DNA from: a virus
Taxonomy: Duplodnaviria; Heunggongvirae; Uroviricota; Caudoviricetes
DNA: 40,715 nucleotides
Direction: 5' to 3' (one strand)
IMG/VR virus record: IMGVR_UViG_2851933302_000004
The notes beneath the pieces were generated by a model that made no database searches, was not told the DNA's origin, and was given only the letters and a program-made list of their open reading frames with translations. Below, in pieces: positions 6,514 to 35,471 of the stretch. How positions within the stretch are numbered: the first letter of the stretch is position 1; every line of letters starts with the position of its first letter. A program made the translations under genes and the position numbers.

Positions 6514-6617
6514 GTTAAATCTCCAGATAGTCGCAGCACCCGTTGCGCCGCATATCTGGTTATTCTATTACCTGGAAAACCACATATGGATAGAAAGGCT
6601 GTAAATACGAATAGATA

Positions 6618-6632
6618 TTACCTTTCAGGTAA
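6618..6632. promoter_or_regulatory. Operator-like palindrome TTACC-N5-GGTAA (copy 1) in the divergent region between tailspike and the LexA-box gene
   Basis: ATTACCTTTCAGGTAAT perfect inverted repeat; same motif recurs at 11 other positions. Confidence 0.5.
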
Positions 6633-6669
6633 TTTGCAAAACGTGCTGGATAGCAAACAAATTATTTGC

Positions 6670-6689
6670 TACTGTATAAATATACAGTT
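6670..6689 (+). promoter_or_regulatory. LexA (SOS) box 20 bp upstream of a small antirepressor-like gene
   Basis: TACTGTATAAATATACAGTT, CTGT-N8-ACAG with AT-rich spacer, matches about 18 of 20 positions of the E. coli LexA consensus. Confidence 0.7.
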
Positions 6690-6708
6690 ATTGCATGGAG
6701 AAGATAAG

Positions 6709-6966
6709 ATGCAGCAGTATCACTATCCACTGGAAGACGGATTTACCGAAAGGATTCACACGCCGGGAGGCGTCAGGTCACTGGTGGAGGGATCGCACTT
6801 GATGAAATTACTCCGGGATCTCGATAAGGATGGATTTAATGTCGATGGCCCACTTGCCGAACTGACTGCACTGATTAACTACGTCACCAGCTCACAGATG
6901 TCTATGCAGGATCTGCAAACACATCTCGACTATTGTGCCGAACAATTACGAAAACAAACCCGGTAA
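6709..6966 (+). CDS. Small SOS-regulated protein, candidate antirepressor; shares a domain with the C-terminus of the Bro-N protein at 8352..9047
   Basis: ORF 6586..6966 trimmed to ATG 6709 (GGAGAAG RBS); LexA box immediately upstream; about 50 percent identity to the C-terminal 75 aa of the 231-aa Bro-N protein (LMKLLRDLDKDGFNVDGPLAELT vs LMNLLNQLQEDGHDVSGAAAELT). Confidence 0.5.
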   Translation: MQQYHYPLEDGFTERIHTPGGVRSLVEGSHLMKLLRDLDKDGFNVDGPLAELTALINYVTSSQMSMQDLQTHLDYCAEQLRKQTR

Positions 6967-6973
6967 ATTTAAA

Positions 6974-6989
6974 GGCCGCAAGAGCGGCC
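6974..6989. terminator. Hairpin between convergent genes (GGCCGC-AAGA-GCGGCC), likely terminator for the minus-strand two-gene module
   Basis: Perfect 6-bp stem between stop codons at 6966 and 6991; T-rich on minus-strand side. Confidence 0.4.
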
Positions 6990-6990
6990 A

Positions 6991-7497
6991 TTAACAGTCG
7001 TAAAATTCCGGGTCCCACAAACTTGCATCGCGCGGCATGGATTCTAAATTTTTCAGCCGCAAAATTCTGTCACACTCGACAAGAAGTTTTTGTTTTTGTT
7101 CGTCAATTTCTACTTTTTTGTGTGCTGGCTCATCCCAGTAATCCAGAAGAAACGCATGTCGCTCAGACGTTACAAGATAAATCACATACACATCACTGGT
7201 TGGTATTTTTTTATGCTTGTTGGTGGTCTTGTCTTTCTTCCCGGATGCCCAGTTTTTCCAGCATTGTTCCGTACCGCTCTCACCAAACTTGTCAGTATAG
7301 TTTCCGATGTTTACGTGAACGTGGCGTATGTGATATTCCAGCATCTCTTTCGGTGGATCCCGAAACAGAGTGTCCTTTCCGAAATCCTTATGATGACCGT
7401 AGCGCCAGTGATCTATGAACGCGTTTTTGATAGGTATTAGCTCAGGGTCCTTCCCAAAAATTCCAGGGTGAACCAACCCCTGGAATTTATTCAGCAT
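6991..7497 (-). CDS. YafO-like toxin domain protein (candidate type II toxin or abortive-infection effector), AT-rich cargo
   Basis: ORF trimmed to ATG 7497; motifs FGKDTLFRD and HIRHVHVNIGN resemble the YafO family core (recalled); overlaps upstream gene by 11 bp. Confidence 0.4.
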   Translation of the reverse strand: MLNKFQGLVHPGIFGKDPELIPIKNAFIDHWRYGHHKDFGKDTLFRDPPKEMLEYHIRHVHVNIGNYTDKFGESGTEQCWKNWASGKKDKTTNKHKKIPTSDVYVIYLVTSERHAFLLDYWDEPAHKKVEIDEQKQKLLVECDRILRLKNLESMPRDASLWDPEFYDC

Positions 7498-7906
7498 CGT
7501 CGTAGAGCTCCTGAGCCATATCTTCGGCAGTGCGTGCAAACATCCTGCGCGAGATTGCATGAGATTTCTCGACGGACATCTTTGGGACCTCATGCATAAC
7601 ATTTTTGGGAGTTGTGTAATAGCCTATTACAATTTTCACACCTGACTTATGATTAATATCAGCATAATATACTTCTTGTTCAGACGTTTCACGACGAACA
7701 TAATCTGCCAGTTTTCCACATTTAAATTCCCCTCCCTGATGTTTTAAAATCTCCTCAACTGCACTATTTTCAGTGAAATACCGAATAAGAAATTTCTGTC
7801 CAGACTCTTCAGCATGAGGTATAACAGTATTATTGGAAGCCCGAACAATGGCCTTACTCAATATTTCATGGTCTTTATTTTTTTCTGATTTCCTCAAATG
7901 CTGCAT
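7487..7906 (-). CDS. Hypothetical protein with acidic C-terminal tail, upstream partner of the YafO-like gene (candidate antitoxin)
   Basis: ORF trimmed to ATG 7906; AT-rich; stop overlaps start of downstream gene. Confidence 0.4.
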   Translation of the reverse strand: MQHLRKSEKNKDHEILSKAIVRASNNTVIPHAEESGQKFLIRYFTENSAVEEILKHQGGEFKCGKLADYVRRETSEQEVYYADINHKSGVKIVIGYYTTPKNVMHEVPKMSVEKSHAISRRMFARTAEDMAQELYDDAE

Positions 7907-8067
7907 TACTGTAGCTCTCTTCGTGTTCACGGGCACCCCCAACTACCTCTAGGGTAAACATTCTATCGAAAGTATACGCATACTGGCAAAAAAATAGGCA
8001 GGTATTTTCTGAAATGGGATCAATCAAACCACATAGGGTTGAAATAACGTGAGTTATGCATTTATTA

Positions 8068-8082
8068 TTACCTTTGCGGTAA
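8068..8082. promoter_or_regulatory. Operator-like palindrome TTACC-N5-GGTAA (copy 2) about 270 bp upstream of the Bro-N gene
   Basis: TTACCTTTGCGGTAA; preceded by AACCACATAGG motif at 8027..8037. Confidence 0.45.
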
Positions 8083-8174
8083 ATTTACATCGCACTCCTC
8101 TTGTGCCATAGTAATCGGGCACTGGAAAAATCCAGTGCCGGGATTGGCGTCCCGGATTACTAAAAGGCGCATTC

Positions 8175-8196
8175 ACCGCGCAAGCGGTTTTTTTAT
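8175..8196 (+). terminator. Intrinsic terminator inside the 5-prime leader of the Bro-N gene (attenuator or end of a small RNA)
   Basis: ACCGC-GCAA-GCGGT hairpin followed by TTTTTTT. Confidence 0.5.
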
Positions 8197-8351
8197 GCGT
8201 ATAGCACGGCCACATTCGTATTATGGTGGGCTGTGTGGGGGCACCGAAAGGTGCGCCGGGTCCTTTTAGCCGGTTACGCCAACCCTGCACAGTTCACCAC
8301 CAACCGATTGGCGTCGGTAGTGGTGATTAACCAGACTAAAAGGTAACCACT

Positions 8352-9047
8352 ATGACAGCTACAAAAAGCACGTCCATTTTTTCTTTCGAATCCCAAGCCG
8401 ATATACGGGTAATCGTCATTAATGGTGAGCCATGGTTTATCGCTTCAGATGTTTGTCGGGCTATAGGCATAGCAAATCATCGAGATGCTGTTCGAAAACT
8501 TGATGATGATGAGAAGGGCGTCGCTTCAACCGACACCCCTGGCGGTGAGCAAGAATCGATCATCATCTCCGAGTCAGGCCTCTACACACTGATCCTCCGC
8601 TGCCGCGACGCAGTGACACCAGGCACTATCCCCTACCGCTTTCGTAAATGGGTTACAGGTGAGGTTCTTCCTCAGATCCGCCGCACCGGAAGTTACATTA
8701 AAAACTCGCTCCCGCAGGAAGAACGCATAAAGATGGTTGCCGACCAGGTAGCCAACGCCACAGCATCAGCAGTGATGCAGGCAATGAAGATAGAGAACAA
8801 AACCTACAGTGCCCCACTGAAGCCCGGCTACCGCAGCCTGATTCATTCGCCGTCTGGTGTTCTCGGCCTGACGGAGAACTCACTGCTGATGAATCTGCTG
8901 AACCAGTTACAGGAAGACGGGCACGACGTATCGGGCGCGGCGGCGGAGCTGACCACCATGTTCTGCTACATCGTCGGTGTGAGCAAGTGCCTGCGTGATA
9001 TCCAGACGCACGCGGAGTACATCAACGACAAGGCTGGGTTCTTCTGA
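8352..9047 (+). CDS. Bro-N domain protein with C-terminal antirepressor-like domain
   Basis: N-terminus FSFESQADIRVIVINGEPWFIASDVCRAIG is a classic Bro-N signature; C-terminus paralogous to the 85-aa SOS-regulated protein. Confidence 0.7.
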   Translation: MTATKSTSIFSFESQADIRVIVINGEPWFIASDVCRAIGIANHRDAVRKLDDDEKGVASTDTPGGEQESIIISESGLYTLILRCRDAVTPGTIPYRFRKWVTGEVLPQIRRTGSYIKNSLPQEERIKMVADQVANATASAVMQAMKIENKTYSAPLKPGYRSLIHSPSGVLGLTENSLLMNLLNQLQEDGHDVSGAAAELTTMFCYIVGVSKCLRDIQTHAEYINDKAGFF

Positions 9048-9113
9048 CGGGCGGCGGCACATGGATGTGCCTTTAAAATAATCATTGGCGATGTGATGTA
9101 GATTCGCGTAATA

Positions 9114-9128
9114 TTACCTTACGGGTAA
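9114..9128. promoter_or_regulatory. Operator-like palindrome TTACC-N5-GGTAA (copy 3) 60 bp upstream of the 210-aa gene
   Basis: TTACCTTACGGGTAA. Confidence 0.45.
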
Positions 9129-9187
9129 GAAAGCGTTTTTAATCTTCCCTTCAAAACGCGTCCTGTAGCCAAACATGGGAGGACGAA

Positions 9188-9820
9188 ATGAAAACAAATA
9201 CAACAAGAAAAGCGATGCCATACATTATCCCAGAAGCAGATTTCGACAGAAAACTGAACATGTCTGAGAAGAACACTAGTCACACCGAAAGCTACTTAGC
9301 GAAAGGTGTGGTTGATTTCGTTCTTCCGGGATTCACAACACCTTATGGTTATCGCCTTGTAAAATCTTGTAATGGCGATCATTACAGAATGATTACTACC
9401 AGCGATACTCCAGAAACGGTGTATGCGGTTAAGTTAATCTTTCGGGAAGATATCGTCGAAGCTAAAAGAACATGTACGCAGATCATGGTATGGCGTACGC
9501 CTAATGTTATTCATGACCGTGCTGTTCATGGTTTGCCTCAGATTTTTTTTCAGTTCTTCCTAGAGCAATATGCGATCGTTGTATCTGATGAGCAACAAAC
9601 AATCGATGGGAGAAGATTCTGGGAAAGAATGATTTCTTGGGCTATAAACACCCCGGGATATAATGTATACGTTTCAGATGGCTCTGAAGAAGATAGACCT
9701 CTTAGCTTCATGACATCATGGGATGATTTCTATAGCCAGTGGGCTGATTTCTGTTGGGGCAGTGATAAAGATGTGCATACCCACAGACTACTGGTTATAA
9801 GCAAAGATAAACTGCATTAA
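9188..9820 (+). CDS. Hypothetical cargo protein, 210 aa, function unknown
   Basis: ORF with GGGAGG RBS; operator copy upstream and strong terminator downstream; no recognisable family. Confidence 0.5.
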   Translation: MKTNTTRKAMPYIIPEADFDRKLNMSEKNTSHTESYLAKGVVDFVLPGFTTPYGYRLVKSCNGDHYRMITTSDTPETVYAVKLIFREDIVEAKRTCTQIMVWRTPNVIHDRAVHGLPQIFFQFFLEQYAIVVSDEQQTIDGRRFWERMISWAINTPGYNVYVSDGSEEDRPLSFMTSWDDFYSQWADFCWGSDKDVHTHRLLVISKDKLH

Positions 9821-9825
9821 TAGAA

Positions 9826-9846
9826 GCCCGCAGCGCGGGCTTTTTT
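9826..9846 (+). terminator. Rho-independent terminator after the 210-aa gene
   Basis: GCCCGC-AGC-GCGGGC hairpin followed by TTTTTT. Confidence 0.65.
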
Positions 9847-9918
9847 GTGGACGAAACAAAAGTCAGTGCTACACTCATTGACGCCACATTGAGGTGGCTT
9901 ATAGATGGAAATTTCACA

Positions 9919-10080
9919 ATGAAAAAAGCATTTGCTGCACTGTTCGTTTTGTTGTCTCTGGTAGCTTCAACTCAGGCCTTTGCCGGTCGTTGTCAGCACG
10001 ACAGCGATACTGCTGCTGACGGCTCCCGCTGCGGTGGGCGTTCTGCGGATTCCCGCCCGGGTGGCGGTGGCATTCGTTAA
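9919..10080 (+). CDS. Small secreted Cys/Gly-rich peptide (about 53 aa), hypothetical
   Basis: ORF 9847..10080 trimmed to internal ATG giving signal peptide MKKAFAALFVLLSLVASTQAFA; weak RBS. Confidence 0.3.
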   Translation: MKKAFAALFVLLSLVASTQAFAGRCQHDSDTAADGSRCGGRSADSRPGGGGIR

Positions 10081-10086
10081 AAACAA

Positions 10087-10102
10087 GGCCGCGAAAGCGG
10101 CC
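10087..10102. terminator. Bidirectional terminator hairpin between convergent genes
   Basis: GGCCGC-GAAA-GCGGCC with T-rich flanks on both strands. Confidence 0.5.
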
Positions 10103-10109
10103 TGTTTGA

Positions 10110-10961
10110 TCACTGTGCAGTTTTCGCTGATCGATTTTCAGCTCTAAATTCAAGAACCGTTTCAATATTTCTTTCCTTCAGCATATCAATAACATTTTTA
10201 TTCATTTGACTATCACTGGTTAATAACTGGTAAACGTTGCTTCTCTCTTTATCAGAGTTTTCTTTAACAGCTGCTTTGCATGCCAAATGCTTATTGAAAT
10301 TTTCTACATCGCTAGTACAGGAATTTACGGCTGCTGATGAAATATCAGACGCTGAAGAAACACCATCATCCAAACGTTTTATAGCATTTTCTATACATGA
10401 GTTAAGGGAATAAACGACAACTGAGCGATACCCTTCAGACGCACACCATTCTAAATTTCTTGAAGGATCGAGTGGTTTTACTTCGCTGGATTGAATTAAC
10501 TTGTCAAAAACTGACTTATATTCAATCTGTTTTTTATCTATAGCCCATACTTCAGTAGCTGATTTATAATTCCCCGTATGCCTATTAACATCAAATCCAT
10601 GTTTTATAAGCAAATCTGCCCATGAAAGATTTATTGATTCATTGTTATGAGGCCATTTTCCTGTCAGAACCGCCCCCATAGACCCCATATATCCGCCATA
10701 TGATGGTATAGCACCATGGCTCAGTAACTTCTCAGCAACCACAGGGCAATTAATTACATAAGAGGCGTAAAGCCCATTCCATAAAGCCCCTCTATAGTAA
10801 TCGCCACGATTAGGTTCTTTTAAGTCGATAGCCTTTGATAATTGTTCACACGTTTTGCATGCATCAAAGTTATCCTTATTGCATTGCAATGAACTGGCAG
10901 CTGTAGGATTTACAGAGACTATTGAAAGCACTATGCCAAAAAACAAATTTATTTTTTTCAT
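10110..10961 (-). CDS. AT-rich secreted protein, 283 aa, possibly ankyrin-like repeats; moron at the distal end of the virion operon
   Basis: Signal peptide MKKINLFFGIVLSIVSVNPTAASS; codon composition visibly more AT-rich than neighbours; LLSHGA / LLIKHGFDVN segments are ankyrin-like. Confidence 0.55.
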   Translation of the reverse strand: MKKINLFFGIVLSIVSVNPTAASSLQCNKDNFDACKTCEQLSKAIDLKEPNRGDYYRGALWNGLYASYVINCPVVAEKLLSHGAIPSYGGYMGSMGAVLTGKWPHNNESINLSWADLLIKHGFDVNRHTGNYKSATEVWAIDKKQIEYKSVFDKLIQSSEVKPLDPSRNLEWCASEGYRSVVVYSLNSCIENAIKRLDDGVSSASDISSAAVNSCTSDVENFNKHLACKAAVKENSDKERSNVYQLLTSDSQMNKNVIDMLKERNIETVLEFRAENRSAKTAQ

Positions 10962-10962
10962 C

Positions 10963-21546: not shown

Positions 21547-21590
21547 TCCTGCAATAAAGGGGCCGAAGCCCCTTGTCTGATCCGCGAGGC

Positions 21591-21935: not shown

Positions 21936-21936
21936 C

Positions 21937-22374: not shown

Positions 22375-22425
22375 CTTCTTTCTCCATTAGTGGGTCTGTT
22401 ACGACCCACAGGTTAATAACAGGCG

Positions 22426-23418: not shown

Positions 23419-23426
23419 TTCCTCTC

Positions 23427-24128: not shown

Positions 24129-24421
24129 TCCTGTTCACTGGCCTCTTTGGCCATCTTCAAATACTGTTCAGGACAATGCGCCATAACGCGCTGAAACAGT
24201 TCCAGCGCCAGATTGCGTTGCCCCTCATTAAATGCCATTGCCATAGCGTCCATCGGTGAGATAGCGGAAAACACACGGCCTTTCTCCAGCACCGACCAGA
24301 CAACGCGACGCCCCTGTTCACTGCTCATGACAAAGCGAATGTCATCAATTTCACGCTGTGCCATGTCACGTTGCTTACGGGCGTTTTCTTCTTTCAGTTG
24401 ATCGTCTTCGTAATCTGTCAT
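24125..24421 (-). CDS. Hypothetical small protein between portal and scaffold genes
   Basis: 98 aa ORF, overlapping stops and starts with neighbours. Confidence 0.4.
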   Translation of the reverse strand: MTDYEDDQLKEENARKQRDMAQREIDDIRFVMSSEQGRRVVWSVLEKGRVFSAISPMDAMAMAFNEGQRNLALELFQRVMAHCPEQYLKMAKEASEQE

Positions 24422-26097: not shown

Positions 26098-26408
26098 TTC
26101 AATGACTCCGGTTACTGACCAAGCAGCGTTTTACCGCTGGTATTAGCGGTTGATGTGTCGCCCTGAGAACCGGTAAGCAGCGTAGAACTACGACCAGCAG
26201 CAGCGCGACGGCGACGTGTTTCTTCGTCGCGGGCATCAACAACGGCGGCATCCTGCTCCTGTGGTGCTGCCTGAACTTCTGGTGTTGCAGGCACTGATGG
26301 TGAGCTACCCATGCACATATCAATGACTCCGTACGCAATTAAATTATTACCAATTTAACCACATATGATTTATTTATCGTAGAAGGTTGACATTTAACGC
26401 GTTAATTA

Positions 26409-26423
26409 TTACCTTTCAGGTAA
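26409..26423. promoter_or_regulatory. Operator-like palindrome TTACC-N5-GGTAA (copy 4) upstream of portal, with TTGACA 16 bp away
   Basis: TTACCTTTCAGGTAA identical to copy 1; AACCACATATG at 26358..26368 also shared with copy 1 region. Confidence 0.45.
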
Positions 26424-26745
26424 CCAAAGGGCTCATTCTGGTTACTAACCTGACTGGCTTGTCGTTAAATTAAACAGGTGGAGTGAGCTTTTATTTTGAG
26501 CAGTACGGCGTATGGCACATGCGCCGATAGCGGTCTGGATACGTTTAAGGGGCACCCTCCCTTGCTCGGGCAAACGAACCAGGTAGCCGGAATGTGCAAG
26601 TCGAGCGGTTTTATTCCGCGCACGGGGATTCACCATCCCGGCGATTCGGTGTGACGCCTCGGAAGAGACGAGGGTACAACGATGAGAGCATTTATGGAGC
26701 CGCGACAAAGTGTGGCGCCTTAACAGGCTAAGTGCTCTCAGCGTT

Positions 26746-26822
26746 GTGGCATTAGCTCAGTTGGACAGAGCAACCGCCTTCTAAGCGGTTGGTCGCAGGT
26801 TCGAATCCTGCATGCCACGCCA
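26746..26822 (+). tRNA. tRNA-Arg (anticodon UCU), phage-encoded
   Basis: Cloverleaf folded by hand: 7-bp acceptor stem GTGGCAT/ATGCCAC, D-arm GCTC/GAGC, anticodon stem ACCGC/GCGGT with loop CTTCTAA, T-arm GCAGG-TTCGAAT-CCTGC, encoded CCA; resembles host argU with compensatory stem changes. Confidence 0.9.
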
Positions 26823-27020
26823 GAATCACGCCTAAGGACCGTGATGCCAGAAGTTCCAGGTGCTTGGCGGTGATGGTTTCCCTTGAAGGACTATCACCGC
26901 CCTTTTTACAGCAGGACGCCATTGCGATGACTTCATGCTGTAAACCCGTACAGCCACGGAAGGCATAACTCATTGCTTCCAGTTCGCCCGGTTCGCCGGG
27001 CATTTTTTTAAGGTGAGATC

Positions 27021-27443
27021 ATGAAAACAATTGATATGTTGGCTAAGTATCTAAATGAATGGCCATTAAAATATTCTCGTATCGTTCAGGCTGAAGACTG
27101 CGTTTTTTATGGCGTTTTTGCTGGTAATGAAATGCATTACGAAGTAATTCAGAGTGAGGGACTGGCCGGGTTAACGCTTAGCGATGACCATGGAATAGGA
27201 GTTACTTGCCATGACTGGATTTCAGCGCAGAAAACTGAAATGGAAAAAGGCAATGTGTTTGATATTTCTCGCGCTGTATACGCCAAAGAAAAAAGTGATG
27301 ATGATTACATGCGCGAAAACTTATACAACATGAAGTTACAATGCCTGGCTGAAGTGCTTAGTAAAAGATCTTTACTTGATGTGGTTGGTGCTGAGCAGGA
27401 CGCCAAGGCAATCAACGCCGCATTCGATAAAATAACCTTCTAA
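27021..27443 (+). CDS. Hypothetical moron protein, 140 aa, opposite strand to late operon
   Basis: ORF with AGGTGA RBS; flanked by hairpin terminators on both sides; between terminase and portal genes. Confidence 0.5.
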   Translation: MKTIDMLAKYLNEWPLKYSRIVQAEDCVFYGVFAGNEMHYEVIQSEGLAGLTLSDDHGIGVTCHDWISAQKTEMEKGNVFDISRAVYAKEKSDDDYMRENLYNMKLQCLAEVLSKRSLLDVVGAEQDAKAINAAFDKITF

Positions 27444-27447
27444 CGCC

Positions 27448-27462
27448 GTGACATGTCACAAT
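27448..27462. repeat. Palindromic repeat CGTGACATGTCACAAT copy B, just downstream of large terminase
   Basis: Identical 16-mer also at 29663..29678; core GTGACATGTCAC is a perfect 12-bp palindrome. Confidence 0.6.
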
Positions 27463-27463
27463 C

Positions 27464-27489
27464 AGCCCGCCGATTCGCGGGCTTTTTTA
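27464..27489 (+). terminator. Rho-independent terminator after the moron gene
   Basis: AGCCCGC-CGATTC-GCGGGCT followed by TTTTTT. Confidence 0.6.
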
Positions 27490-28962
27490 TGCAAAAGGAT
27501 CATAGTCTGTGATGGCTTTGCCTTGCTGGTTCTGCTGCCCGGGAATTCGCAGACGCTTCGACACAGGGAACGCAAACGTCAGCAGTAGCGCATCGCCTTT
27601 ACCAGGAGAACGCCCAAGTCGCTCTTTGATATCTTCCTTCGGTTCGATAACGATTTTACCGTCCACGCGAACTTTGTACTCTGCCGTCGACAGGTCGTCC
27701 GCTGTTTCCTGGTCATCCAGCATGCCGCCGAGCCTCAGCCATGTCTTGCATGAGTTGAACATCTCCCCACGCTTGTTGAGCATCTGCGGGTCAGTAGACG
27801 CGCCACCGAACGGAACAAGTTGCCATGTACGACCCCAGCCGTCACCGATTGACTTCAAACCGGTTCCGTAACCGAAGTCGATGAACACCGCGTCAGCCTG
27901 ATACTGGTCTTCAAAGTCAGCGATACGCTTCGCCATAATCAGATCGTCGGTAGTCTTGTTGCCAGTCCACAGCACCTTACTGTGTAGCCCCTGCCGCAGG
28001 TATATCACCGCGTCATCAACGCCTGAATATGCCGGGTCAACACCGATTATCACCGGAGCATGTGCCACCTGCGCAGCGGTTACCACCCGTTTCATTGCCT
28101 CGTCAGTAAGACCGGTAGGGATAAACTGCAATTCAGATGCATCAGGGAATATGCCACGCACACGGATTTTAACGAAGTCGCTATCTTCCCCATAGTCATC
28201 AACCCATTTCTGCAACTGCTGTTTGTTGGTGCCTTCCACCGTCCTGCTGTCAATCTGCGCAGTTTTCCAGCGGTGTTTGTATTTGCGGAAACATTCACGG
28301 AAACGCCCGGTGTTACGTGTAGGGTTTCCGAAAGCCACCCAGATAATCTCAGTGTCTTCGTCCGTTAGCGCACCCTCGGCAACTTCCCACACCAGATCCG
28401 CAATGTTCGACGCTTCATCAAATACCACGATGATGCGTTTACGCTCGTTGTGTAGTCCGGCGAATGCCTCAGTGTTGTGCTCAGACCAGGGGATTGCGTC
28501 AGCTCGCCACCGCTTGTCGTGCCCAGGGTCATTGCTGTACATCGCGGTAGCGGTACAGGTAAACCAGTCTTTCGTGATAGCAAGGTTTGACCACTTGATA
28601 ATTTCCGGCCAGGTCTTCGTTCGTAGCTGGTTGTCGGTGTTGGCGGTCACCACGACCTTACAATCCTCGCAAGTGGACATGCCCCAGTTGATCAGCATTG
28701 AGATGAATGCGGATTTACCAATACCGTGACCAGAAGCACGTGCCAGCATAAGCGGCTGATATCGCGTCTCTGGATTCTGCAGGTGATCACGTATCTCTCG
28801 GAACGCATCGGCCTGCCACTGACGTGGACCGGTGGCATGTGCCAGTTCAGTACCCTCTTCCCCCCACGGGAACGCATAGAGGGCATAGCCAAGCGGATCG
28901 TGAGTGAACCCTGCAATATCCTCGATTAACTGCTCTTCAGGAGATAACGCTGTATCTGTCAC
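27487..28962 (-). CDS. Terminase large subunit
   Basis: 491 aa; Walker A-like ASGHGIGKS, ATPase and nuclease segments; coupled to upstream small subunit. Confidence 0.85.
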   Translation of the reverse strand: MTDTALSPEEQLIEDIAGFTHDPLGYALYAFPWGEEGTELAHATGPRQWQADAFREIRDHLQNPETRYQPLMLARASGHGIGKSAFISMLINWGMSTCEDCKVVVTANTDNQLRTKTWPEIIKWSNLAITKDWFTCTATAMYSNDPGHDKRWRADAIPWSEHNTEAFAGLHNERKRIIVVFDEASNIADLVWEVAEGALTDEDTEIIWVAFGNPTRNTGRFRECFRKYKHRWKTAQIDSRTVEGTNKQQLQKWVDDYGEDSDFVKIRVRGIFPDASELQFIPTGLTDEAMKRVVTAAQVAHAPVIIGVDPAYSGVDDAVIYLRQGLHSKVLWTGNKTTDDLIMAKRIADFEDQYQADAVFIDFGYGTGLKSIGDGWGRTWQLVPFGGASTDPQMLNKRGEMFNSCKTWLRLGGMLDDQETADDLSTAEYKVRVDGKIVIEPKEDIKERLGRSPGKGDALLLTFAFPVSKRLRIPGQQNQQGKAITDYDPFA

Positions 28963-29555
28963 TGATTGCCATCCTGGCGTTCTTTCAGTCTCTTCCTGGC
29001 TGCCGCTATGCGATCAGCAATTGTCACATTCACATTAACATCCAGGCGTTCTTTGAATGCGTTGACGTCGACGTGCTTACCAATCAGTTCGAGGTTCTTC
29101 ACCTTGTCAGGCCATTTAATTTTTTTGAGGATTGTCTCTATCGAATCCTCGTTCATGTTCATGATGGTCGATGACAGATCAAAGCCACTAAGCGTAGTGC
29201 GCCAGATTTTCGGCCACTCGCGGATTGGCTTAAGGCTCCCATCGTCGTTGAGGATGTCGATCACGTCCATCTGGTCGATCTCCACCAGGCGCATGAGAAC
29301 GTAATCAGCACTGACGCGCATTCGTTTGTTGCGCTCTTCCATCAGCTCGGCAATCCGTTTTTGAATGCGTTCATCGCGCATCATGAGACTGGCTTTAACT
29401 GCCGCTGTATTTGGGGAGAATCCTGCGTTAATCGCTGCCTGAGTCTGGTTTTCAGGCGTTTTGATGTATGACTGGCAATAAGCCTCCTGCATTGCTGTTA
29501 GTGGCTTAAATTGCGTTGATTTGCGTTTATAGGCTTTAGGTTCAGCAGGCATCAT
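28959..29555 (-). CDS. Terminase small subunit; start placed at internal ATG
   Basis: ORF 28959..29651 trimmed to ATG 29555 because a hairpin terminator lies at 29596..29624; protein resembles recalled terminase small subunit families. Confidence 0.55.
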   Translation of the reverse strand: MMPAEPKAYKRKSTQFKPLTAMQEAYCQSYIKTPENQTQAAINAGFSPNTAAVKASLMMRDERIQKRIAELMEERNKRMRVSADYVLMRLVEIDQMDVIDILNDDGSLKPIREWPKIWRTTLSGFDLSSTIMNMNEDSIETILKKIKWPDKVKNLELIGKHVDVNAFKERLDVNVNVTIADRIAAARKRLKERQDGNQ

Positions 29556-29595
29556 AACCACCGTGGTAATAGTTACCGTTGTGGTAATAGTACCA

Positions 29596-29624
29596 TGCAA
29601 AATAAAGCCGCCATAGTTGGCGGC
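29596..29624 (-). terminator. Intrinsic terminator in the leader of the late (terminase) operon
   Basis: Minus-strand RNA: GCCGCC-AACTAT-GGCGGC followed by UUUAUUUUG. Confidence 0.5.
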
Positions 29625-29662
29625 AGTATTCAAAACCATCAAATTCATCATGCATAACCCAC

Positions 29663-29678
29663 TCGTGACATGTCACAA
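29663..29678. repeat. Palindromic repeat CGTGACATGTCACAAT copy A, upstream of late operon leader
   Basis: Identical to 27447..27462; overlaps stop codon of the upstream Cys-rich gene. Confidence 0.6.
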
Positions 29679-30014
29679 TATTAATTTCGTTTCATGCCAG
29701 CCTTTGGTCACCCAGCATTGCGAGTCACCATTACACGGGCATGAATTCACAGGAACTCTCTCGCCGCACTTACCGCAACGTTTTCTGCTGATCGATTTTA
29801 TACGCCCGTGCACGCGAGCATCATCCTGGCGGATAAGTAACGCAATATACTCACCAAATTCGTAAGGCGCACGCCCGGGGCGACGCGTGGCACAGTTACG
29901 CTCCAGCATTTCAATTTCCTGAGCATCAAGCACAATCTCCAGTTTACGCACACCAGATGCAGCTTGTCTGGCTCTCTGAGCGGCTTTGCGCTCTGCTGCT
30001 GATTTAGCCATCAA
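29673..30014 (-). CDS. Cys-rich small protein with putative zinc-ribbon; candidate late-gene regulator by position
   Basis: 113 aa; C-terminal CGKCG..CPCNGDSQC cluster; immediately upstream of late promoter/terminator region. Confidence 0.45.
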   Translation of the reverse strand: MMAKSAAERKAAQRARQAASGVRKLEIVLDAQEIEMLERNCATRRPGRAPYEFGEYIALLIRQDDARVHGRIKSISRKRCGKCGERVPVNSCPCNGDSQCWVTKGWHETKLIL

Positions 30015-30285
30015 TATTCACCTTTATCGCGAACACCTTTACCGGTTTATCACCGAAGTGGGGATGTGTGATTGTCTTGATTTCATATCCGTCATACGGG
30101 ACGTCAATTCTGCGGCTGGAATCGTCGCGCTTCGGATATCCCTTTGTGATAATCAGGCGGTCATACTCGCGGAACATAATTCGCTTATTCCAGTAGTCAT
30201 TACACAGGCGATACTCTTCCGTTTTCTCTCCGCGAATCATGGCATCGAAGTATTCACCTTTAACGGCAAGTTGCAGGTTAGCCAC
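30004..30285 (-). CDS. Hypothetical protein
   Basis: 93 aa ORF in early-left operon. Confidence 0.45.
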   Translation of the reverse strand: MANLQLAVKGEYFDAMIRGEKTEEYRLCNDYWNKRIMFREYDRLIITKGYPKRDDSSRRIDVPYDGYEIKTITHPHFGDKPVKVFAIKVNIDG

Positions 30286-30565
30286 GACCTTCCTCCTTTG
30301 GCTTGTGAATTTGTATCGTCATGCCGCTTTGAGTGGTGACTACAACGACAGAACCAGGCTGAAGACTGTTAAGATTGAATGCTTCGTAAAACGAAGCCAA
30401 GGCCAGCGCTTTTTTATTCTTTCGGTTCCACCAACGCCATCCATTGCTACAGGCTACACTGACAATCCACTGTCCACTCCTGTAAGCCATATAAAACCAG
30501 ATGAGCAAAACCTGAATGAATGCTATCCAGTCAATAATCGTATATTTCGCGAAGGAGACCATCAA
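30278..30565 (-). CDS. Hypothetical small membrane protein
   Basis: 95 aa with hydrophobic N-terminal half. Confidence 0.4.
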   Translation of the reverse strand: MMVSFAKYTIIDWIAFIQVLLIWFYMAYRSGQWIVSVACSNGWRWWNRKNKKALALASFYEAFNLNSLQPGSVVVVTTQSGMTIQIHKPKEEGRG

Positions 30566-31134
30566 TTAACCTCCTGCGGCGGTTCCGGTAGAGGCATCCA
30601 GTACAAGGCGTTCCCTAACCACGATAAAGTGCCGTCGCTCAACTCCACGTATTCCCCTTGTACCTGTCCTGCCATATACTCGCCGTGCTTTGAATAAATT
30701 AAAATCCAATCATCTTGAGCGGGCATTCGCTCACTACAGCTTATCCAACCATCCGGAGTTACCGGATAGTTGCCCGACAGCTCGTTCAACTTGTAAGTTT
30801 GGCTTACAGGTTCGGCTTCCAGTTCTGCAATGCGCTTCTCTGCAGCTTCCAGCTCAACGCGCAGCTTCCCTACCGTTAGCGCAATTTCCTCGTTCTCCTG
30901 GTCGCGGCGTTTGATGTATTGCTGGTTTCTTTCCCGTTCATCCAGCAGCGCCAGCACGGTTTCTGGTCCGGTCAGAAATTTGAAGGCGTTGAGCGCATCA
31001 ATATCCACACCGTAATCCTTAAGTTCCTGTTCACTTAACAAATCATCATCAACTGGCAACATTAACAGGCGTTCCATTGCCGGAATTGCACGTTCTGCCG
31101 CCTCACGCAGTGCCTGATAGTTAATTTTGGTCAT
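30562..31134 (-). CDS. Hypothetical protein with coiled-coil and C-terminal DUF551-like region
   Basis: ORF trimmed to internal ATG 31134 (MTKINYQ) with GGGGA RBS; C-terminal DGW..WMPLPEPP pattern recalled from DUF551. Confidence 0.45.
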   Translation of the reverse strand: MTKINYQALREAAERAIPAMERLLMLPVDDDLLSEQELKDYGVDIDALNAFKFLTGPETVLALLDERERNQQYIKRRDQENEEIALTVGKLRVELEAAEKRIAELEAEPVSQTYKLNELSGNYPVTPDGWISCSERMPAQDDWILIYSKHGEYMAGQVQGEYVELSDGTLSWLGNALYWMPLPEPPQEVN

Positions 31135-31160
31135 ATCACATCCCCCTGAAGCCGTTGCAT

Positions 31161-31436
31161 TTACGTAAAAAAATCGCAGATATAGCCCTTCATTTTTTCG
31201 TGCCAATCTCGATCATTCCCATTGCACCAACCATCAGGTGGAGTCCAGTTTTCTATCAGAGCAGCCATTTTCTTTGCTTTCGCCGGAGTAGCTGTTGCGG
31301 TATCGCAGTAATGACGAGTGTCAACCAACGTATCCATACCATCGATATCAAGTACGCAAAACCATGTGTGATTCGGCATTTCAACAGATGGTATTTGTTG
31401 CCCACGTCGACGTTTATCAATAAGACATACAGTCAC
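31161..31436 (-). CDS. Hypothetical protein
   Basis: 91 aa ORF, coupled to upstream gene. Confidence 0.4.
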   Translation of the reverse strand: MTVCLIDKRRRGQQIPSVEMPNHTWFCVLDIDGMDTLVDTRHYCDTATATPAKAKKMAALIENWTPPDGWCNGNDRDWHEKMKGYICDFFT

Positions 31437-31954
31437 TGGTTGCCTCCTTTGCGAAGCTGGGCAGCAAAGTCAACTAACCACTCAGTCATTTCAACCTTCC
31501 CTACCAGGTCTGAACCAGGGTGCATACAGCAATCACTCTGCGCCGCTTTGAAATCCTTATACTCATATTCTTGGGCCACCAGATTTTTTGCAGCTTCTAT
31601 AGCAGCATCCACCCCCTGCGCCCGTACTTCAGCCAAGAAAGCGTCGGTGGCTGTGGTTTCGATATCGTTAATTTCAGGAAGAATCTCTTCCCATGTAGCG
31701 ATATCGCCATTCAAATGCCATCCGGCAATTCCACTGGAGTTATCCGCAACACTGCGAACGGCTTCAATAGTTTCATGCATTGCCTCATTCTCCGCTGCCA
31801 GCGCATTAGCACGCACCAGTTGCACTTCCAGTTGCGTTGCCAAATCGCTGATCAGCTTTGCCACACTGCGCATATCAACGGCACCACATTCTGCTTTCAG
31901 TTCCGAAGCCATCTCATGCCCGGCGGCAACTAACCCTTTGATATTACTTTCCAT
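31433..31954 (-). CDS. Hypothetical protein
   Basis: 173 aa acidic helical protein. Confidence 0.45.
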   Translation of the reverse strand: MESNIKGLVAAGHEMASELKAECGAVDMRSVAKLISDLATQLEVQLVRANALAAENEAMHETIEAVRSVADNSSGIAGWHLNGDIATWEEILPEINDIETTATDAFLAEVRAQGVDAAIEAAKNLVAQEYEYKDFKAAQSDCCMHPGSDLVGKVEMTEWLVDFAAQLRKGGNQ

Positions 31955-32015
31955 CTTTACCCTCGCTTATCCACATAACTTATTGATTACATTGATAACT
32001 AAAAAGATCGTCGAT

Positions 32016-32363
32016 TCAGAACTCTTCGATGTTCCAGCCACCACCTGCTTTCTTTGGCTTAACCGTTACCCCGATGATTCGGAACGGATACTGATCTGCG
32101 GCGACTTTGGTTTTCACTCTGGCGTCATCGGTCCAGAATCCCCCTTTCACTTCGTGCAGTTCCATCTCGCCGGTGGCGAGCATCACAGCAAAATCTGGCG
32201 TATAGAACGTGTTGTCAGCTAACCGCAGCTTGATACCCTCAAATCGATACCAGACGATTTCTCCTGCACGTTTACGCAGCTCAAGGTGCTGGCAATACGC
32301 AGATTCTGTTTTGTTCATCTGGCCTGTTTTGAGTCGACCAAGAGCCTGCATCTGTTTTCTCAT
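32016..32363 (-). CDS. PD-(D/E)XK-type nuclease-like protein
   Basis: 115 aa; TPDFAVM and ELHEVKGG fit a PD..(D/E)XK motif; operator copy overlaps its RBS. Confidence 0.45.
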   Translation of the reverse strand: MRKQMQALGRLKTGQMNKTESAYCQHLELRKRAGEIVWYRFEGIKLRLADNTFYTPDFAVMLATGEMELHEVKGGFWTDDARVKTKVAADQYPFRIIGVTVKPKKAGGGWNIEEF

Positions 32364-32366
32364 GAT

Positions 32367-32381
32367 TTACCCCTTAGGTAA
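32367..32381. promoter_or_regulatory. Operator-like palindrome TTACC-N5-GGTAA (copy 5) overlapping the RBS of the nuclease-like gene
   Basis: TTACCCCTTAGGTAA 3 nt from the start codon; AACCACATAAG at 32387..32397. Confidence 0.45.
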
Positions 32382-32428
32382 TTAAAAACCACATAAGACA
32401 CGAAATCAATAGATTTTAGAATATTTTA

Positions 32429-32443: not shown

Positions 32444-32480
32444 TTATCGAGACGTAAAAAAATGCGCTATCGCGCTGGTA

Positions 32481-35458: not shown

Positions 35459-35471
35459 ATTGCCTATGCTA

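Follow-up and report, generated by a model that had tools for sequence, protein, structure and literature searches.

A second conserved site beside the repressor operators

The window, the whole 40,715-nt stretch analysed here, is an integrated epsilon15/phiV10-like (Uetakevirus) prophage in the orientation opposite to phiV10, and the predicted core-promoter regions of all its transcription units except PR/PRM and terS contain a 14-bp imperfect palindrome with the consensus A(A/T)(C/T)CATAT(A/G)TGGTT. We consider this box to be a second cis-regulatory site of the epsilon15/phiV10-like temperate phages, most likely docked by a second regulator of the delayed and late promoters, and from the comparisons below we give this reading a probability of about 0.4. 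As an element the box is of an ordinary kind; it carries no annotation in the epsilon15 RefSeq record, and no description was found in the accessible literature, which did not include the original epsilon15, phiV10 and SPC32H papers, so a prior description is possible.

The strong arm of the palindrome is the 9-mer AACCACATA, which reads TATGTGGTT on the minus strand, the direction of the late genes. The window holds exactly four copies, all on the plus strand (6578–6586, 8027–8035, 26357–26365 and 32387–32395), against 0.29 expected, and none of 100 shuffles reached four; the degenerate form TATNTGGTT occurs ten times against 1.0 expected. The sequence-only reading had picked out this motif on the strand opposite to the genes behind it, and overlooked the palindrome. 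Its 11-mer spellings read as it gave them (AACCACATATG at copies 1 and 3, ending in AGG at 8027 and in AAG at 32387), and the motif and its proximity to operators are real, with small errors of position: the copies at 8027 and 32387 were placed correctly, the first was put at 6570 instead of 6578 and the third was displaced by 1 nt, and the distance to an operator, given as 5 to 40 bp, is 4–42 nt. From each copy to the next operator along the plus strand the gap is 30, 31, 42 and 32 nt, in copy order, and the copy at 32387 also lies 4 nt from the operator at 32366–32382.

Four copies alone are not rare, since 221 nine-mers have at least four in the window, and this is what can be said for the co-occurrence being chance or a by-product of AT-rich intergenic composition, together with a companion repeat (CGAATAGATAT, discussed below) that stays within chance. 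Location is what sets AACCACATA apart. Operator pieces excepted, it is the only 9-mer with at least four copies of which every copy lies within 60 bp of an operator centre, a zone that covers 3.3% of the window (P ~1.2e-6 per k-mer, ~2.7e-4 after correction for 221 k-mers), and all four copies are intergenic, where the intergenic share of the window is 8.3%. The proposed association with operators is significant, at a corrected P of about 3e-4. Chance is further opposed by the conservation of the box, its constant spacing and its recovery over many genomes by a position weight matrix (PWM) trained independently, and the cross-genome data effectively refute it.

Operators and boxes in the window

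The operators belong to the family ATTACC-N5-GGTAAT, which gives 24 strand-matches in the window against 0.4 expected. One lies beside box A (6617–6633, no strand assigned), and the others are at 7942, 8067, 9113, 26408, 29554, 29572, 32366, 32428, 34374, 34759, 35471 and 35533; identical 17-mers are labelled 'protein_bind: repressor' in the epsilon15 RefSeq record. The repressor, Rep (34830–35414, plus strand), matches chain A of PDB 5D50 (E 4e-42) and carries two HTH-type domains. The recognition helix in its N-terminal part, NLVNRW, is invariant, whereas the helix of its C-terminal XRE-type HTH is not kept between the epsilon15 and phiV10 groups. This Rep is a close homologue of SPC32H Rep, and the window also encodes a close homologue of SPC32H Ant (E 4e-47; the SPC32H Rep/Ant switch is PDB 5D50/5D4Z), with a perfect LexA box at 6672–6687 ahead of the ant gene, and a Bro-N antirepressor gene downstream of isrK and a C4 antisense RNA (both Rfam hits). 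The early-right region is a series of short units with intrinsic terminators between them.

A PWM for the box was trained on relatives only and then run on the window, with 50 shuffles as background (maximum 18.2 bits). It recovers five strong sites, at the tail-fibre, lysis, head, antirepressor and p42 promoters, three of which outscore every shuffle. The PWM column counts are symmetric, in keeping with a palindrome, and the lysis boxes of phiV10 and Tyrion are the perfect palindrome AACCATATATGGTT. The left arm is far less conserved than GGTT, and the box faces its downstream gene in an almost constant orientation; these two features suit a directional promoter element and a dimer site equally. 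All promoter assignments at the box sites given below are predictions, being consensus matches in AT-rich DNA.

Three geometries can be distinguished. First, at the late promoters the box stands upstream of a -10-like hexamer. Box A, ATCCATATGTGGTT (6578–6591, minus strand; 22.2 bits), lies upstream of the tail-fibre gene (3394–6513, minus), has its partner operator (6617–6633) centred 40.5 bp upstream and is followed by the conserved GGTAATAGAAT (6562–6572). Box C, AATCATATGTGGTT (26357–26370, minus; 19.6 bits), lies 38 nt upstream of the first head-operon gene (26112–26318, minus), with its partner operator (26408–26424) centred 52.5 bp upstream and TAATAA (26344–26349) 7 nt downstream. On the gene strand of the tail-fibre and head sites, the consensus scan called no sigma-70 promoter that includes a -35.

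Second, the box may overlap a predicted -35 by two bases. The lysis-operon box ATTCATATATGGTT (3148–3161, minus; 21.4 bits), upstream of 2683–3087 (minus), has no operator near it, and its last two T's begin the -35 TTTACT (3149–3144), which is followed by 17 nt and AATAAT (3126–3121). The p42 box AACCAAATCTGGTT (34356–34369, minus; 15.3 bits) has its partner operator (34374–34390) centred 19.5 bp upstream, and its last two T's likewise begin the conserved -35 TTGATC (34352–34357), with CAAAAT (34329–34334) after 17 nt. Box B, AACCCTATGTGGTT (8027–8040, minus; AACCACATAGGGTT on the plus strand; 17.8 bits), shares 2 nt on the plus strand with the -35 of a predicted promoter (TTGAAA 8039–8044, 18 nt, TATTAT 8063–8068; 10/12 match) that feeds isrK, the C4 antisense RNA and the Bro-N antirepressor gene; the centre of the box falls at about -41.5, and the operator at 8067–8083 spans +1.

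Third, the box may lie in the spacer. Box D, the half-site TGTCTTATGTGGTT (32387–32400, minus), contains the exact 9-mer, with the full 14-mer below 9 bits, and occupies positions 4–17 of the 17-nt spacer between TTGATT (32404–32409) and TTTAAT (32381–32386), upstream of a DUF1064 gene (32016–32363, minus). It is flanked by the operators at 32428–32444 (42.5 bp away) and 32366–32382 (19.5 bp away). The weak box in the PL spacer, ATGCGTATTTGGTT (35515–35528, minus), scores at background level (12.5 bits); PL itself, from the promoter scan, consists of TTGACA (35506–35511), 17 nt and AATTAT (35529–35534), with operators at 35471–35487 and 35533–35549.

These geometries bear on the reading of the box as an intrinsic promoter part, an unusual -35 or spacer read by the host RNA polymerase holoenzyme alone and inherited from one ancestral promoter type. 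The box always lies in promoter regions within about 60 nt of a start codon and in near-constant orientation, its terminal TT opens a TTGAnn-type -35 at p42, site B and the window lysis promoter, and a cassette is common to PL and D. However, between the box and the nearest -10-like hexamer there are 0 nt at D, 7 nt at the late promoters and ~23 nt where a -35 is overlapped, so the box is not a fixed core element. At D and PL the box is in the spacer, and RNA polymerase does not normally read the promoter spacer sequence-specifically. The flanks of the box are unrelated from site to site, and the partial dyad symmetry, with the opposite arm conserved at site D of Tyrion, is also against it. 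We regard an intrinsic promoter part as rather unlikely. The non-uniform distance to the -10-like hexamer also weighs against our preferred reading, which needs one protein to work in three geometries.

Conservation and operator–box spacing in related phages

In 7–15 related phages and prophages the box has persisted within flanking DNA that has diverged, and the operator-to-box centre distance is invariant and free of indels at each site (19.5, 40.5–43.5 or 52.5 bp). At the tail-fibre promoter of seven genomes the operator, a diverged 30-nt gap, CATATNNGGTT, 7 nt and TAATAGAAT are all kept, as are GGTAATAGAAT, box A and the length of the gap. The 52.5-bp distance at the head promoter is identical in seven genomes and the divergent relative L105, and TGGTT shows no variation among 56 distinct upstream sequences of close relatives; here conservation extends over the entire 60 nt before the ATG, so that the box does not form an island of its own at this promoter. 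The p42 site, compared in about 14 phages and prophages, has the look of a classic footprint: box, TTGATC and CAAAAT stay the same, and the spacer varies in sequence and length (16–17 nt). The site B arrangement is common to phiV10, Tyrion and EC.W1-9. Box D is degenerate or missing in some relatives, and in Tyrion the same position carries the opposite arm, AACCGTATATGGAT. In the PL spacer, a good box occupies the equivalent position in Tyrion, and a Klebsiella phage has none; elsewhere only the -35-proximal arm is conserved. SPC32N shares these operators and carries this box at its head, tail-fibre, lysis, D and p42 sites. The lysis-promoter boxes of the window, EC.W1-9 and the Klebsiella phage are free of operators, and the box is thus not a mere appendage of the operator. 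In substance, the 'shared promoter architecture' put forward by the sequence-only reading holds in the window and in every relative examined, as a conserved cis-element in or near core-promoter regions that is partnered with operators.

The distances of 19.5, 40.5, 42.5, 43.5 and 52.5 bp each fall within ~0.15 turn of whole 10.5-bp turns. Such constant distances, about 2, 4 or 5 helical turns, hint that Rep and the proposed box-binding protein, or else Rep and RNA polymerase, have to sit on one face of the DNA. They would also suit an auxiliary, low-affinity contact for tetrameric Rep, in which one pair of DNA-binding domains sits on the consensus operator and the other pair, or the C-terminal XRE-type HTH domains, reaches across the core promoter to the box; a single operator centred at about -67 to -79 could then repress a late promoter with the box 2, 4 or 5 turns away. 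Strong boxes do go with single operators (A, B, C and p42), whereas the two-operator sites (D and PL) have only half or weak boxes and the tandem and triple sites (terS and OR) none. Rep, with its two HTH-type domains, is homologous to SPC32H Rep (5D50), which binds DNA as a tetramer (PMC9638917), and an ACC/GGT core is common to the box (ACC-N6-GGT) and the operator (ACC-N5-GGT). However, three lysis promoters have a box without an operator, and the single operators at 9113 and 7942 have no box. Nor does the box match the Rep operator: by our own count about 6/10 arm positions are alike and the spacing is wrong, operator-like matches of this quality are common by chance, and the CATAT centre has no counterpart in the variable N5 of the operator. 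The putative recognition helix of the C-terminal HTH changes from the epsilon15 to the phiV10 group while the box stays the same, and a near-constant orientation is unexpected of a symmetric auxiliary operator. Rep binds the operators; it is not likely to read the box, and the reader is probably another protein.

Phages and prophages of Escherichia, Salmonella, Enterobacter, Klebsiella, Citrobacter, Kluyvera, Buttiauxella and Erwinia all show one and the same box consensus, whereas the phage regulators across this host range have diverged to 45–80% identity. This constancy would be expected if a conserved DNA-binding protein of the host (Enterobacterales) used the box, coupling the promoters to host physiology or bending the operator–promoter DNA, and host IHF sites assigned by the curators of the epsilon15 record adjoin the same operators. 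The Rep operator, however, is just as invariant across those hosts, so invariance alone does not point to a host factor. On inspection of the site sequences, the box also misfits the consensus sequences of IHF, LexA, CRP, DnaA (one site within one mismatch), Fis and sigma-54, and we know of no enterobacterial factor with an A-ACC-ATATAT-GGT-T site. A host factor is accordingly improbable.

Candidate readers of the box and proposed mode of action

By elimination only, the PerC-like predicted activator encoded in the PL operon (38329–38628, plus strand; Pfam PerC, E 6e-7; phrog_868) is the leading candidate for the binder, followed by an 82-aa AlpA-like excisionase/regulator (37971–38219, plus strand; Pfam Phage_AlpA hit). 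Both are essentially limited to the box-carrying clade. Among phage records, the PerC-like protein is confined to the 36 of this clade, and its gene, with a conserved core, is present in every prophage locus whose sequence extends that far; the AlpA-like protein is essentially clade-restricted with an invariant HTH region. No conserved box lies beside the att core, the expected place for an excisionase to bind. Every relative has all the candidate regulators together, and phyletic profiling therefore cannot tell which of them is the binder.

Three other regulators were set aside. The Cro-like p41 has a homologue at the cro position of Psychrobacter phage pOW20-A. Facing this homologue are three TACC-N5-GGTA operators but no box, and the operator is therefore the most likely target of p41. 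A homologue of p55 occurs in ZF40, a phage without the box, and another, assessed by its gene position only, in the early-left region of lambda-like Chlobot, which has its own Q protein. The p42 family is widespread among unrelated phages.

On our preferred reading, a dimeric, sequence-specific protein other than Rep or Cro would bind the box and set promoter activity in lytic growth. The tail-fibre, head and phiV10-type lysis promoters have no -35 and carry the box 7 nt upstream of a -10-like hexamer; here the binder would replace -35 recognition and so activate. At the p42, isrK/C4/antirepressor and window lysis promoters, where the box reaches 2 nt into the -35, it would occupy the position of a class II activator (centre ~-41), and in the 17-nt spacers of promoter D and PL its binding may damp early transcription. 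In the lysogen, Rep on the partnered operator would gate these promoters.

Comparison with known systems

Class II activator sites (CRP/FNR, lambda CI at PRM) are centred near -41.5 and overlap the -35. The box ends two bases inside the predicted -35 at the p42, isrK/C4/antirepressor and window lysis promoters, which puts its centre at about -40.5 to -41.5; these positions derive from predicted promoters, the three late promoters misfit the geometry, and the likeness concerns mode of action, not protein family. The SPC32H Rep/Ant switch of a Salmonella epsilon15-like phage is the system to which the box belongs and does not explain it; the SPC32H work reportedly concerns Rep, Ant, LexA and operators and is not known to describe a second motif.

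Phage P1 combines a C1 repressor, whose many operators are dispersed, with Lpa-dependent late promoters and an immI region of c4 antisense RNA and antirepressor (PMC8198154). P1 and the window are alike in having one repressor with genome-wide operators, also before morphogenesis and lysis genes, and a C4-type antisense RNA and operator ahead of an antirepressor gene; a further likeness, proposed for the window, is that late transcription depends on special promoters and on a factor encoded by the phage. In the late promoters of P1, a short palindrome near -22 accompanies the -10 hexamer and takes the place of the -35, an arrangement that resembles the box – 7 nt – (-10) layout at the tail-fibre, head and lysis promoters. 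However, P1 is a myovirus/plasmid and the window a podovirus, the repressor family and operator are unrelated, and the window also has the box at promoters of early type, where it overlaps the -35 or lies in the spacer, unlike the pattern of P1 late promoters. To our knowledge, the box sequence is unrelated to anything in P1.

Q-type elements (lambda QBE and the ABE of Pseudomonas aeruginosa AlpA) lie between -35 and -10, upstream of terminator-punctuated operons (PMC9371919). Similarly, the box fills exactly the 17-nt spacer at promoter D and PL, and intrinsic terminators separate the early-right units of the window. The best-conserved boxes, in contrast, are not between -35 and -10, and neither a -10-like pause element nor a Q-like protein was identified in the window. 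The DNA-reading HTH contacts of P. aeruginosa AlpA are at residues 128–142 (PMC9371919), which makes it much longer than the 82-aa excisionase-type protein of the window, and the ABE, GGGACG, is unrelated to the box.

The PL and promoter D cassette

'Duplicated regulatory cassettes' had also been suggested, and here the earlier interpretation is only partly supported. PL and promoter D share the layout operator – 18 nt – ATCTATTGAnn – 17 nt – (-10) – operator, the two operator centres being separated by 62 bp in each, and true cassette likeness is limited to this pair. The four AACCACATA sites share just the operator and the box; the 30–42 nt between the two are unrelated across sites, which points to sharing kept by selection and not to recent duplication. 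The short repeat CGAATAGATAT, reported to abut operators, has its first copy at 6608–6618 as described and its second at 34389–34399, 1 nt from the position given, and is not significant by itself, two copies (up to one mismatch) occurring in 8 of 100 shuffles. By eye the identity reaches 13 nt (TACGAATAGATAT; 6606–6618 and 34387–34399), an extent that, by our estimate, a 40-kb window can still produce by chance. The CGAATAGATAT/ATCTATT box has the appearance of a relic of the PL/D cassette.

Layout of the prophage

The window shares 96–99% identity over long stretches with the epsilon15/phiV10-like temperate podophages (Uetakevirus), in the orientation opposite to that of phiV10. The known att core, ATTGAGTGGGAATGATT, occurs once (1163–1179), and the integrase gene extends past the right end; thus, the window is a prophage in its integrated state, preceded on the left by about 1.1 kb of flanking DNA. 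Repeats of ATACCGTCAC lie near the att core (1251–1260) and inside or near the int gene (40194, 40447 and 40537); like those annotated in epsilon15, they are probably arm-type sites of the integrase. The late genes are on the minus strand, with the head–tail genes running from 26318 down to about 10110, the tail-fibre gene from 6513 to 3394 and the lysis genes from 3087 downward. The repressor Rep (34830–35414, plus strand) is a homologue of the SPC32H protein in PDB entry 5D50 (E = 4e-42), and the small antirepressor Ant (6709–6966, plus strand) is a homologue of SPC32H Ant, chain E of that entry (E = 4e-47). The operator, ATTACC-N5-GGTAAT, gives 24 strand matches against 0.4 expected and occupies 13 sites in the window. 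The same 17-mers are labelled 'protein_bind: repressor' in the epsilon15 RefSeq record, which also annotates IHF, RNase III and integrase sites and has nothing at the positions of the second motif described below.

A 14 bp box beside the operators

The sequence-only reading had proposed that a second conserved motif accompanies several operators. The 9-mer, AACCACATA, is present in four copies on the plus strand (6578, 8027, 26357 and 32387); the first coordinate given for it was off by 8 and the third by 1. Four copies compare with 0.29 expected, and no shuffle reaches that number. Copy number is weak evidence by itself, because 221 nine-mers have at least four copies in the window. However, AACCACATA is the sole such 9-mer, operator fragments aside, with every copy less than 60 bp from an operator centre. 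This zone makes up 3.3% of the window, and therefore the probability per k-mer is about 1.2e-6, rising to about 2.7e-4 when corrected for these 221 nine-mers. The association with the operators is thus upheld, and we regard its being a product of chance as very improbable. All four copies are intergenic, in a window of which 8.3% is intergenic, and a degenerate form, TATNTGGTT, is found ten times against 1.0 expected.

On the minus strand every copy reads TATGTGGTT, with an operator upstream and a gene downstream. The order is operator, 30 nt, motif and tail-fibre gene at the tail-fibre site; operator, 31 nt and motif (8027) at site B, next to the second antirepressor module; operator, 42 nt, motif and first head gene at the head site; and operator, 32 nt, motif, 4 nt, operator and DUF1064 gene at site D. 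The sequence separating operator from motif shows no relation between sites.

We compared these sites with phiV10, epsilon15, EC.W1-9, Tyrion, SPC32N and a Klebsiella prophage with a 60% identical portal protein, with eight prophages of Citrobacter, Erwinia, Kluyvera, Buttiauxella, Pseudocitrobacter, Scandinavium and Klebsiella species, and with 80 IMG/VR loci. In this comparison the 9-mer is the strong arm of a 14 bp imperfect palindrome, which we call the box. The perfect palindrome, AACCATATATGGTT, occurs at the lysis promoters of phiV10 and Tyrion, and at site D of Tyrion the opposite arm is the one kept (AACCGTATATGGAT). Over 20 non-redundant sites of the relatives, the columns are A, A/T, C/T, C, A, T, A in the first half and T, A/G, T, G, G, T, T in the second, with the GGTT and the C at position 4 invariant. 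A matrix trained on the relatives' sites only was then scanned over the window; on shuffles its mean maximum is 13.6 bits and its top value 18.2 bits. The boxes score 22.2 bits at the tail fibre (6578–6591), 21.4 at lysis (3148–3161), 19.6 at the head site (26357–26370), 17.8 at site B (8027–8040) and 15.3 at p42 (34356–34369). The copy at D (32387–32400) is a half-site below 9 bits, and the copy in the PL spacer (35515–35528) is marginal. The second motif is therefore real and larger than was first seen: a 14 bp element at about seven sites, conserved in an Enterobacterales prophage family.

Conservation and spacing

The tail-fibre promoter has the same architecture in all seven genomes: operator, exactly 30 nt that are mostly diverged, (C)ATATNNGGTT, 7 nt and TAATAGAAT. 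Across the relatives, the distance between operator and box centres is constant at each site, being 52.5 bp at the head site, 40.5 bp at the tail fibre, 43.5 bp at lysis in the genomes with an operator there, 42.5 and 19.5 bp at D, and 19.5 bp at p42. The divergent relative L105 retains the 52.5 bp despite a different sequence 3′ of the box. Each distance lies within about 0.15 turn of two, four or five helical turns (10.5 bp per turn). Such constant and roughly in-phase spacing suggests that the two proteins bound there, or Rep and RNA polymerase, need a particular placement relative to each other. At the head promoter, the 9-mer varies at positions 1, 2 and 4 only among 56 distinct sequences of close relatives; this site is not diagnostic by itself, because the entire proximal region is conserved there. 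The IMG/VR scan with the perfect palindrome gave three loci of the 80 that are relatives, one of them (L105) usefully divergent; nearly all hits are chance matches. Sodalis phiSG1 is too decayed to inform the comparison.

Beside the tail-fibre box, a second 9-mer, TATCTGGTT, lies inverted at 6553–6561 (plus strand), 16 nt from the box 9-mer at 6578–6586 (minus strand), so that TGGTT...AACCA brackets the conserved GGTAATAGAAT. The bracket is present in phiV10 and EC.W1-9 and absent in epsilon15 and Tyrion. The tail-fibre and ant genes are divergent, and their common intergenic region contains this box, the operator 6617–6633 and, upstream of ant, a perfect LexA box, CTGTATAAATATACAG (6672–6687).

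Promoter context of the box

The box directly abuts its nearest −10-like hexamer at D (0 nt) and is separated from it by 7 nt at the tail-fibre, head and phiV10-type lysis promoters and by about 23 nt at p42, B and window lysis. The 7 nt promoters have no −35 hexamer, and a consensus promoter scan found no match on the gene strand at the window tail-fibre and head sites. The sequence 7 nt downstream of the box is TAATAG, TAATAA or TATAAT; with this as the −10 element, the box would be centred about 26.5 bp upstream of the predicted +1.

At p42, the final TT of the box forms the first two bases of a −35 hexamer, TTGATC (34352–34357), followed 16–17 nt on by CAAAAT (34329–34334). Both hexamers are kept in about 14 genomes, with spacers that vary in sequence and length, which reads as the classic footprint of a real promoter. 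Site B has a predicted plus-strand promoter, TTGAAA (8039–8044), 18 nt and TATTAT (8063–8068), with 10 of 12 positions matching and an operator over +1; the box, centred at 8033.5, overlaps the predicted −35 as it does at p42. The box likewise overlaps the −35 of the predicted window lysis promoter, TTTACT-17-AATAAT. Its centre is near −41 at all three of these predicted promoters.

At D and PL, the box occupies positions 4–17 of a 17 nt spacer, and the cassette lies between two operators whose centres are 62 bp apart; the D box (32387–32400) lies between TTGATT and TTTAAT. The PL (35471–35549) and D (32366–32444) cassettes both consist of an operator, 18 nt ending in ATCTATTGA, a −35, 17 nt and a −10 fused to the next operator. 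The proposal of duplicated regulatory cassettes therefore applies to PL and D, which share this cassette; the box sites at large are not recent duplicates, since the operator–motif DNA is unrelated between them. The further short repeat noted beside the operators, CGAATAGATAT, does have two copies (6608 and 34389), but this count is within chance. It overlaps an ATCTATT(G/C) box, which at PL and promoter D likewise lies ahead of the −35 or includes it and is found five times in the window against 2.6 expected; we read it as a weak relic of the shared cassette. The minus strand of PL carries a possible back-to-back promoter antisense to rep (TTGATG, 18 nt and AAAAAT, fused to operator 35471–35487).

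The box could be an intrinsic promoter element, given its place against the conserved hexamers. We consider this improbable: the box is unlike the sigma-70 core elements (−35, extended −10 and −10), as its distance to the −10 is not fixed and its TG is not at −15/−14. By inspection, sigma-54, sigma-28, ECF, extended −10 and MotA-box resemblances gave no consistent fit. A reading at the RNA level, as a leader hairpin or nut-like site, was rejected, since the box is upstream of the −10 at D and PL and its stem is just 4–5 bp; an Rfam scan gave no match at the box sites.

Box and operator do not always occur together. Among the window sites examined, the box is absent at PR/PRM (three operators), at terS (two operators) and at the operators at 7942 and 9113. 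Conversely, a box without an operator is seen at three lysis promoters, those of the window, EC.W1-9 and the Klebsiella phage.

In the 'gap' upstream of the head operon there is a tRNA-Arg(tct) gene (26746–26822, plus strand); a phiV10-p04-like ORF overlapping it on the opposite strand (26752–27003) is probably spurious. A promoter-like site directed at the tRNA (26387–26415, plus strand) consists of TTGACA (26387–26392), 17 nt and TACCTT within the operator 26408–26424, and the TTGACA is conserved in 56 relatives. Therefore, the 'head' operator may primarily control this divergent promoter.

The second antirepressor module

Besides the LexA-controlled small Ant, the window has a second antirepressor module of the P1 immI-like type. 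Its Bro-N::Ant-like gene (8352–9047, plus strand) directly follows two plus-strand RNAs, the Hfq-binding sRNA isrK (8119–8194; Rfam, 76.7 bits) and the C4 antisense RNA (8219–8304; Rfam, 77.7 bits), which are preceded by the operator 8067–8083. A second predicted promoter, TTTACA (8084–8089), 17 nt and CATAGT (8107–8112), would start at the isrK 5′ end, with the operator centre at about −44. The box does not belong to this module as a mobile unit: Stx phages have the RNAs (window 8127–8327) but neither the upstream operator nor the box.

Candidate readers of the box

The box partly resembles the Rep operator: it reads ACC-N6-GGT, flanked by A(A/T) and T(T), and agrees with the operator at about six of ten arm positions. 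However, the spacing is wrong, which makes the box a poor operator, and its CATAT centre is conserved, whereas the operator centre is variable. The box is also present where no operator is. Moreover, the putative recognition helix of the C-terminal XRE-type HTH of Rep differs between the epsilon15 and phiV10 groups, yet the box is the same in both; like the operator, the N-terminal helix (NLVNRW) is invariant. Rep is thus an unlikely reader, and we would give an auxiliary Rep contact at the box only a small chance. Rep has two HTH-type domains, one YdaS/Cro-like (residues 21–61) and one HTH_3 (residues 106–147, E = 1e-9). The latter falls in the part solved alone as PDB entry 5D4Z (query residues 89–190), which has been described as the tetramerization and Ant-binding domain.

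Three further phage proteins were rejected as binders. The Cro-like p41 (34445–34675) has an invariant HTH; its sole distant homologue, in Psychrobacter phage pOW20-A, occupies the cro position, across from a CI with a Rep-like N-terminal domain, and faces three TACC-N5-GGTA operators in a genome without the box. This homology makes the operator the most likely target of the p41 family. The p55/gp49-type regulator, encoded by the last gene before terS, has an RHH-like N-terminus and a Cys-rich C-terminus. It has a 66% identical homologue in Pectobacterium phage ZF40, where a scan found neither the box nor a comparable shared motif; homologues also occur in lambda-like Chlobot (the box scan covered ZF40, not Chlobot), N15 and many Vibrio phages. 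Finally, p42 is a small Zn-ribbon protein whose family is widespread in unrelated phages.

A host factor could also read the box. The consensus sites are CTGT-N8-ACAG for LexA, WATCAANNNNTTR for IHF, TGTGA-N6-TCACA for CRP, TTATCCACA for DnaA and TGGCAC-N5-TTGC for sigma-54. By inspection against these, the box sites in the window show no match; the head site alone is one mismatch from a DnaA box, and the genuine LexA box is elsewhere (6672–6687). A host-factor site is quite unlikely.

The PerC-like (38329–38628) and AlpA-like (37971–38219) proteins have conserved cores and are essentially confined to the box-carrying clade, both being present in its members wherever the sequence covered their position. 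In the prophages from eight other Enterobacterales species, the candidate regulators occur together wherever the sequence reaches them, so that phyletic profiling does not discriminate among them. If the AlpA-like protein read the box, an excisionase site would be expected at the att core; TTGGTTATGGTT is there in the phiV10 group and not in epsilon15 or SPC32N, and comparison of these phages found no conserved box next to the core. By elimination, the PerC-like protein would be the first candidate.

Comparison with known systems

In the Lpa-dependent late promoters of P1, a short palindrome near −22 accompanies the −10 hexamer instead of a −35. A profile scan of ten regulators and their neighbours in the window found no match to an Lpa-type or Q-family protein. 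P1 has the closest overall layout, with a single repressor and many dispersed operators, late promoters that depend on Lpa, a protein of the phage, and an immI-type module pairing an antisense RNA with an antirepressor (PMC8198154). The isrK and C4 RNAs before the Bro-N antirepressor extend this likeness; however, the proteins and sites of the window are unrelated to those of P1. The Q/AlpA binding elements (PMC9371919) resemble the box in their spacer location at D and PL, but the five strongest box sites are not in a spacer. At B, p42 and window lysis, all predicted promoters, the box is placed as a class II activator site, centred near −41.5 and overlapping the −35. A literature search, with the original epsilon15, phiV10 and SPC32H papers outside its coverage, found no mention of the second motif.

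Proposed role of the box

The box is an ordinary kind of element, a second cis-regulatory site in the phage circuit. Our main reading, to which we assign a probability of roughly 0.4, is that a dimeric regulator, neither Rep nor Cro, binds it and acts at the core promoters of all delayed and late units. The analysis shows that the box exists and is enriched, its dyad character, its conservation, its constant spacing and its place against the conserved hexamers; that a protein binds it, which one it is and in which direction it regulates, we infer. Such a regulator would replace −35 recognition at the late promoters, work from a class-II-like position at the p42, antirepressor and window lysis promoters, and occupy the promoter spacer at D and PL, while Rep on the partnered operator would hold those promoters shut in the lysogen. 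A more specific version takes the box as the target of the PerC-like protein. This early PL product would switch the lytic programme, activating the −35-less (tail-fibre, head and lysis) and class-II-type promoters and damping PL and D, with or against Rep and in helical phase; we hold this version to be doubtful.

The epsilon15-like phages are models for the Rep/Ant antirepressor switch and for serotype conversion, and serve as reporter and biocontrol phages. Should a regulator bind the box, it would be the missing cis-element in the timing of their late genes. The tail-fibre, head and lysis promoters each carry the box, accompanied in most genomes by a Rep operator at a constant, helically phased distance, and would then offer a testable design in which the repressor and a lytic-phase factor share control. 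The 14 bp matrix is a practical handle for annotating promoters of this prophage family across Enterobacterales. A further possible gain is the DNA target of a PerC-like or AlpA-like protein, the former being the main upside. PerC/Pch proteins are regulators of EPEC/EHEC virulence. A box read by the PerC-like protein would be the first defined recognition sequence for this family, with an ancestral role as a phage late-gene activator. One paper on Pch reports that it binds many AT-rich sites, and the words 'consensus' and 'motif' are absent from that text (PMC4764244). Should the box be no more than a weak contact of Rep or a peculiarity of the promoters, the finding would be an ordinary one.

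Additional features

The terS ATG at 29552 is directly abutted by two adjacent operators with centres 18 bp apart (29552–29588), and a terminator lies just upstream; the longer terS ORF called to 29651 is probably an artefact. A 12 bp palindrome, GTGACATGTCAC, occurs on either side of the terminase operon, just past terL (27448–27459) and, on the terS side, a short way upstream of the terminator and the two operators (29665–29676). It is also near terS in epsilon15 and Tyrion, and could be a pac-related or regulatory site. In the PL operon, a 68-residue ORF between the p38-like gene and recE (36019–36225, plus strand) looks from its sequence like a small winged-helix protein, and is apparently missing from phiV10 and EC.W1-9. 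Lastly, TCCCGTTTTTGG occurs four times on the minus strand (33676, 33700, 33724 and 33805), three copies being spaced by exactly 24 bp. This iteron-like array (33676–33817) lies within the DnaT-like replication gene (33263–34078, minus strand) and is presumably the replication origin.
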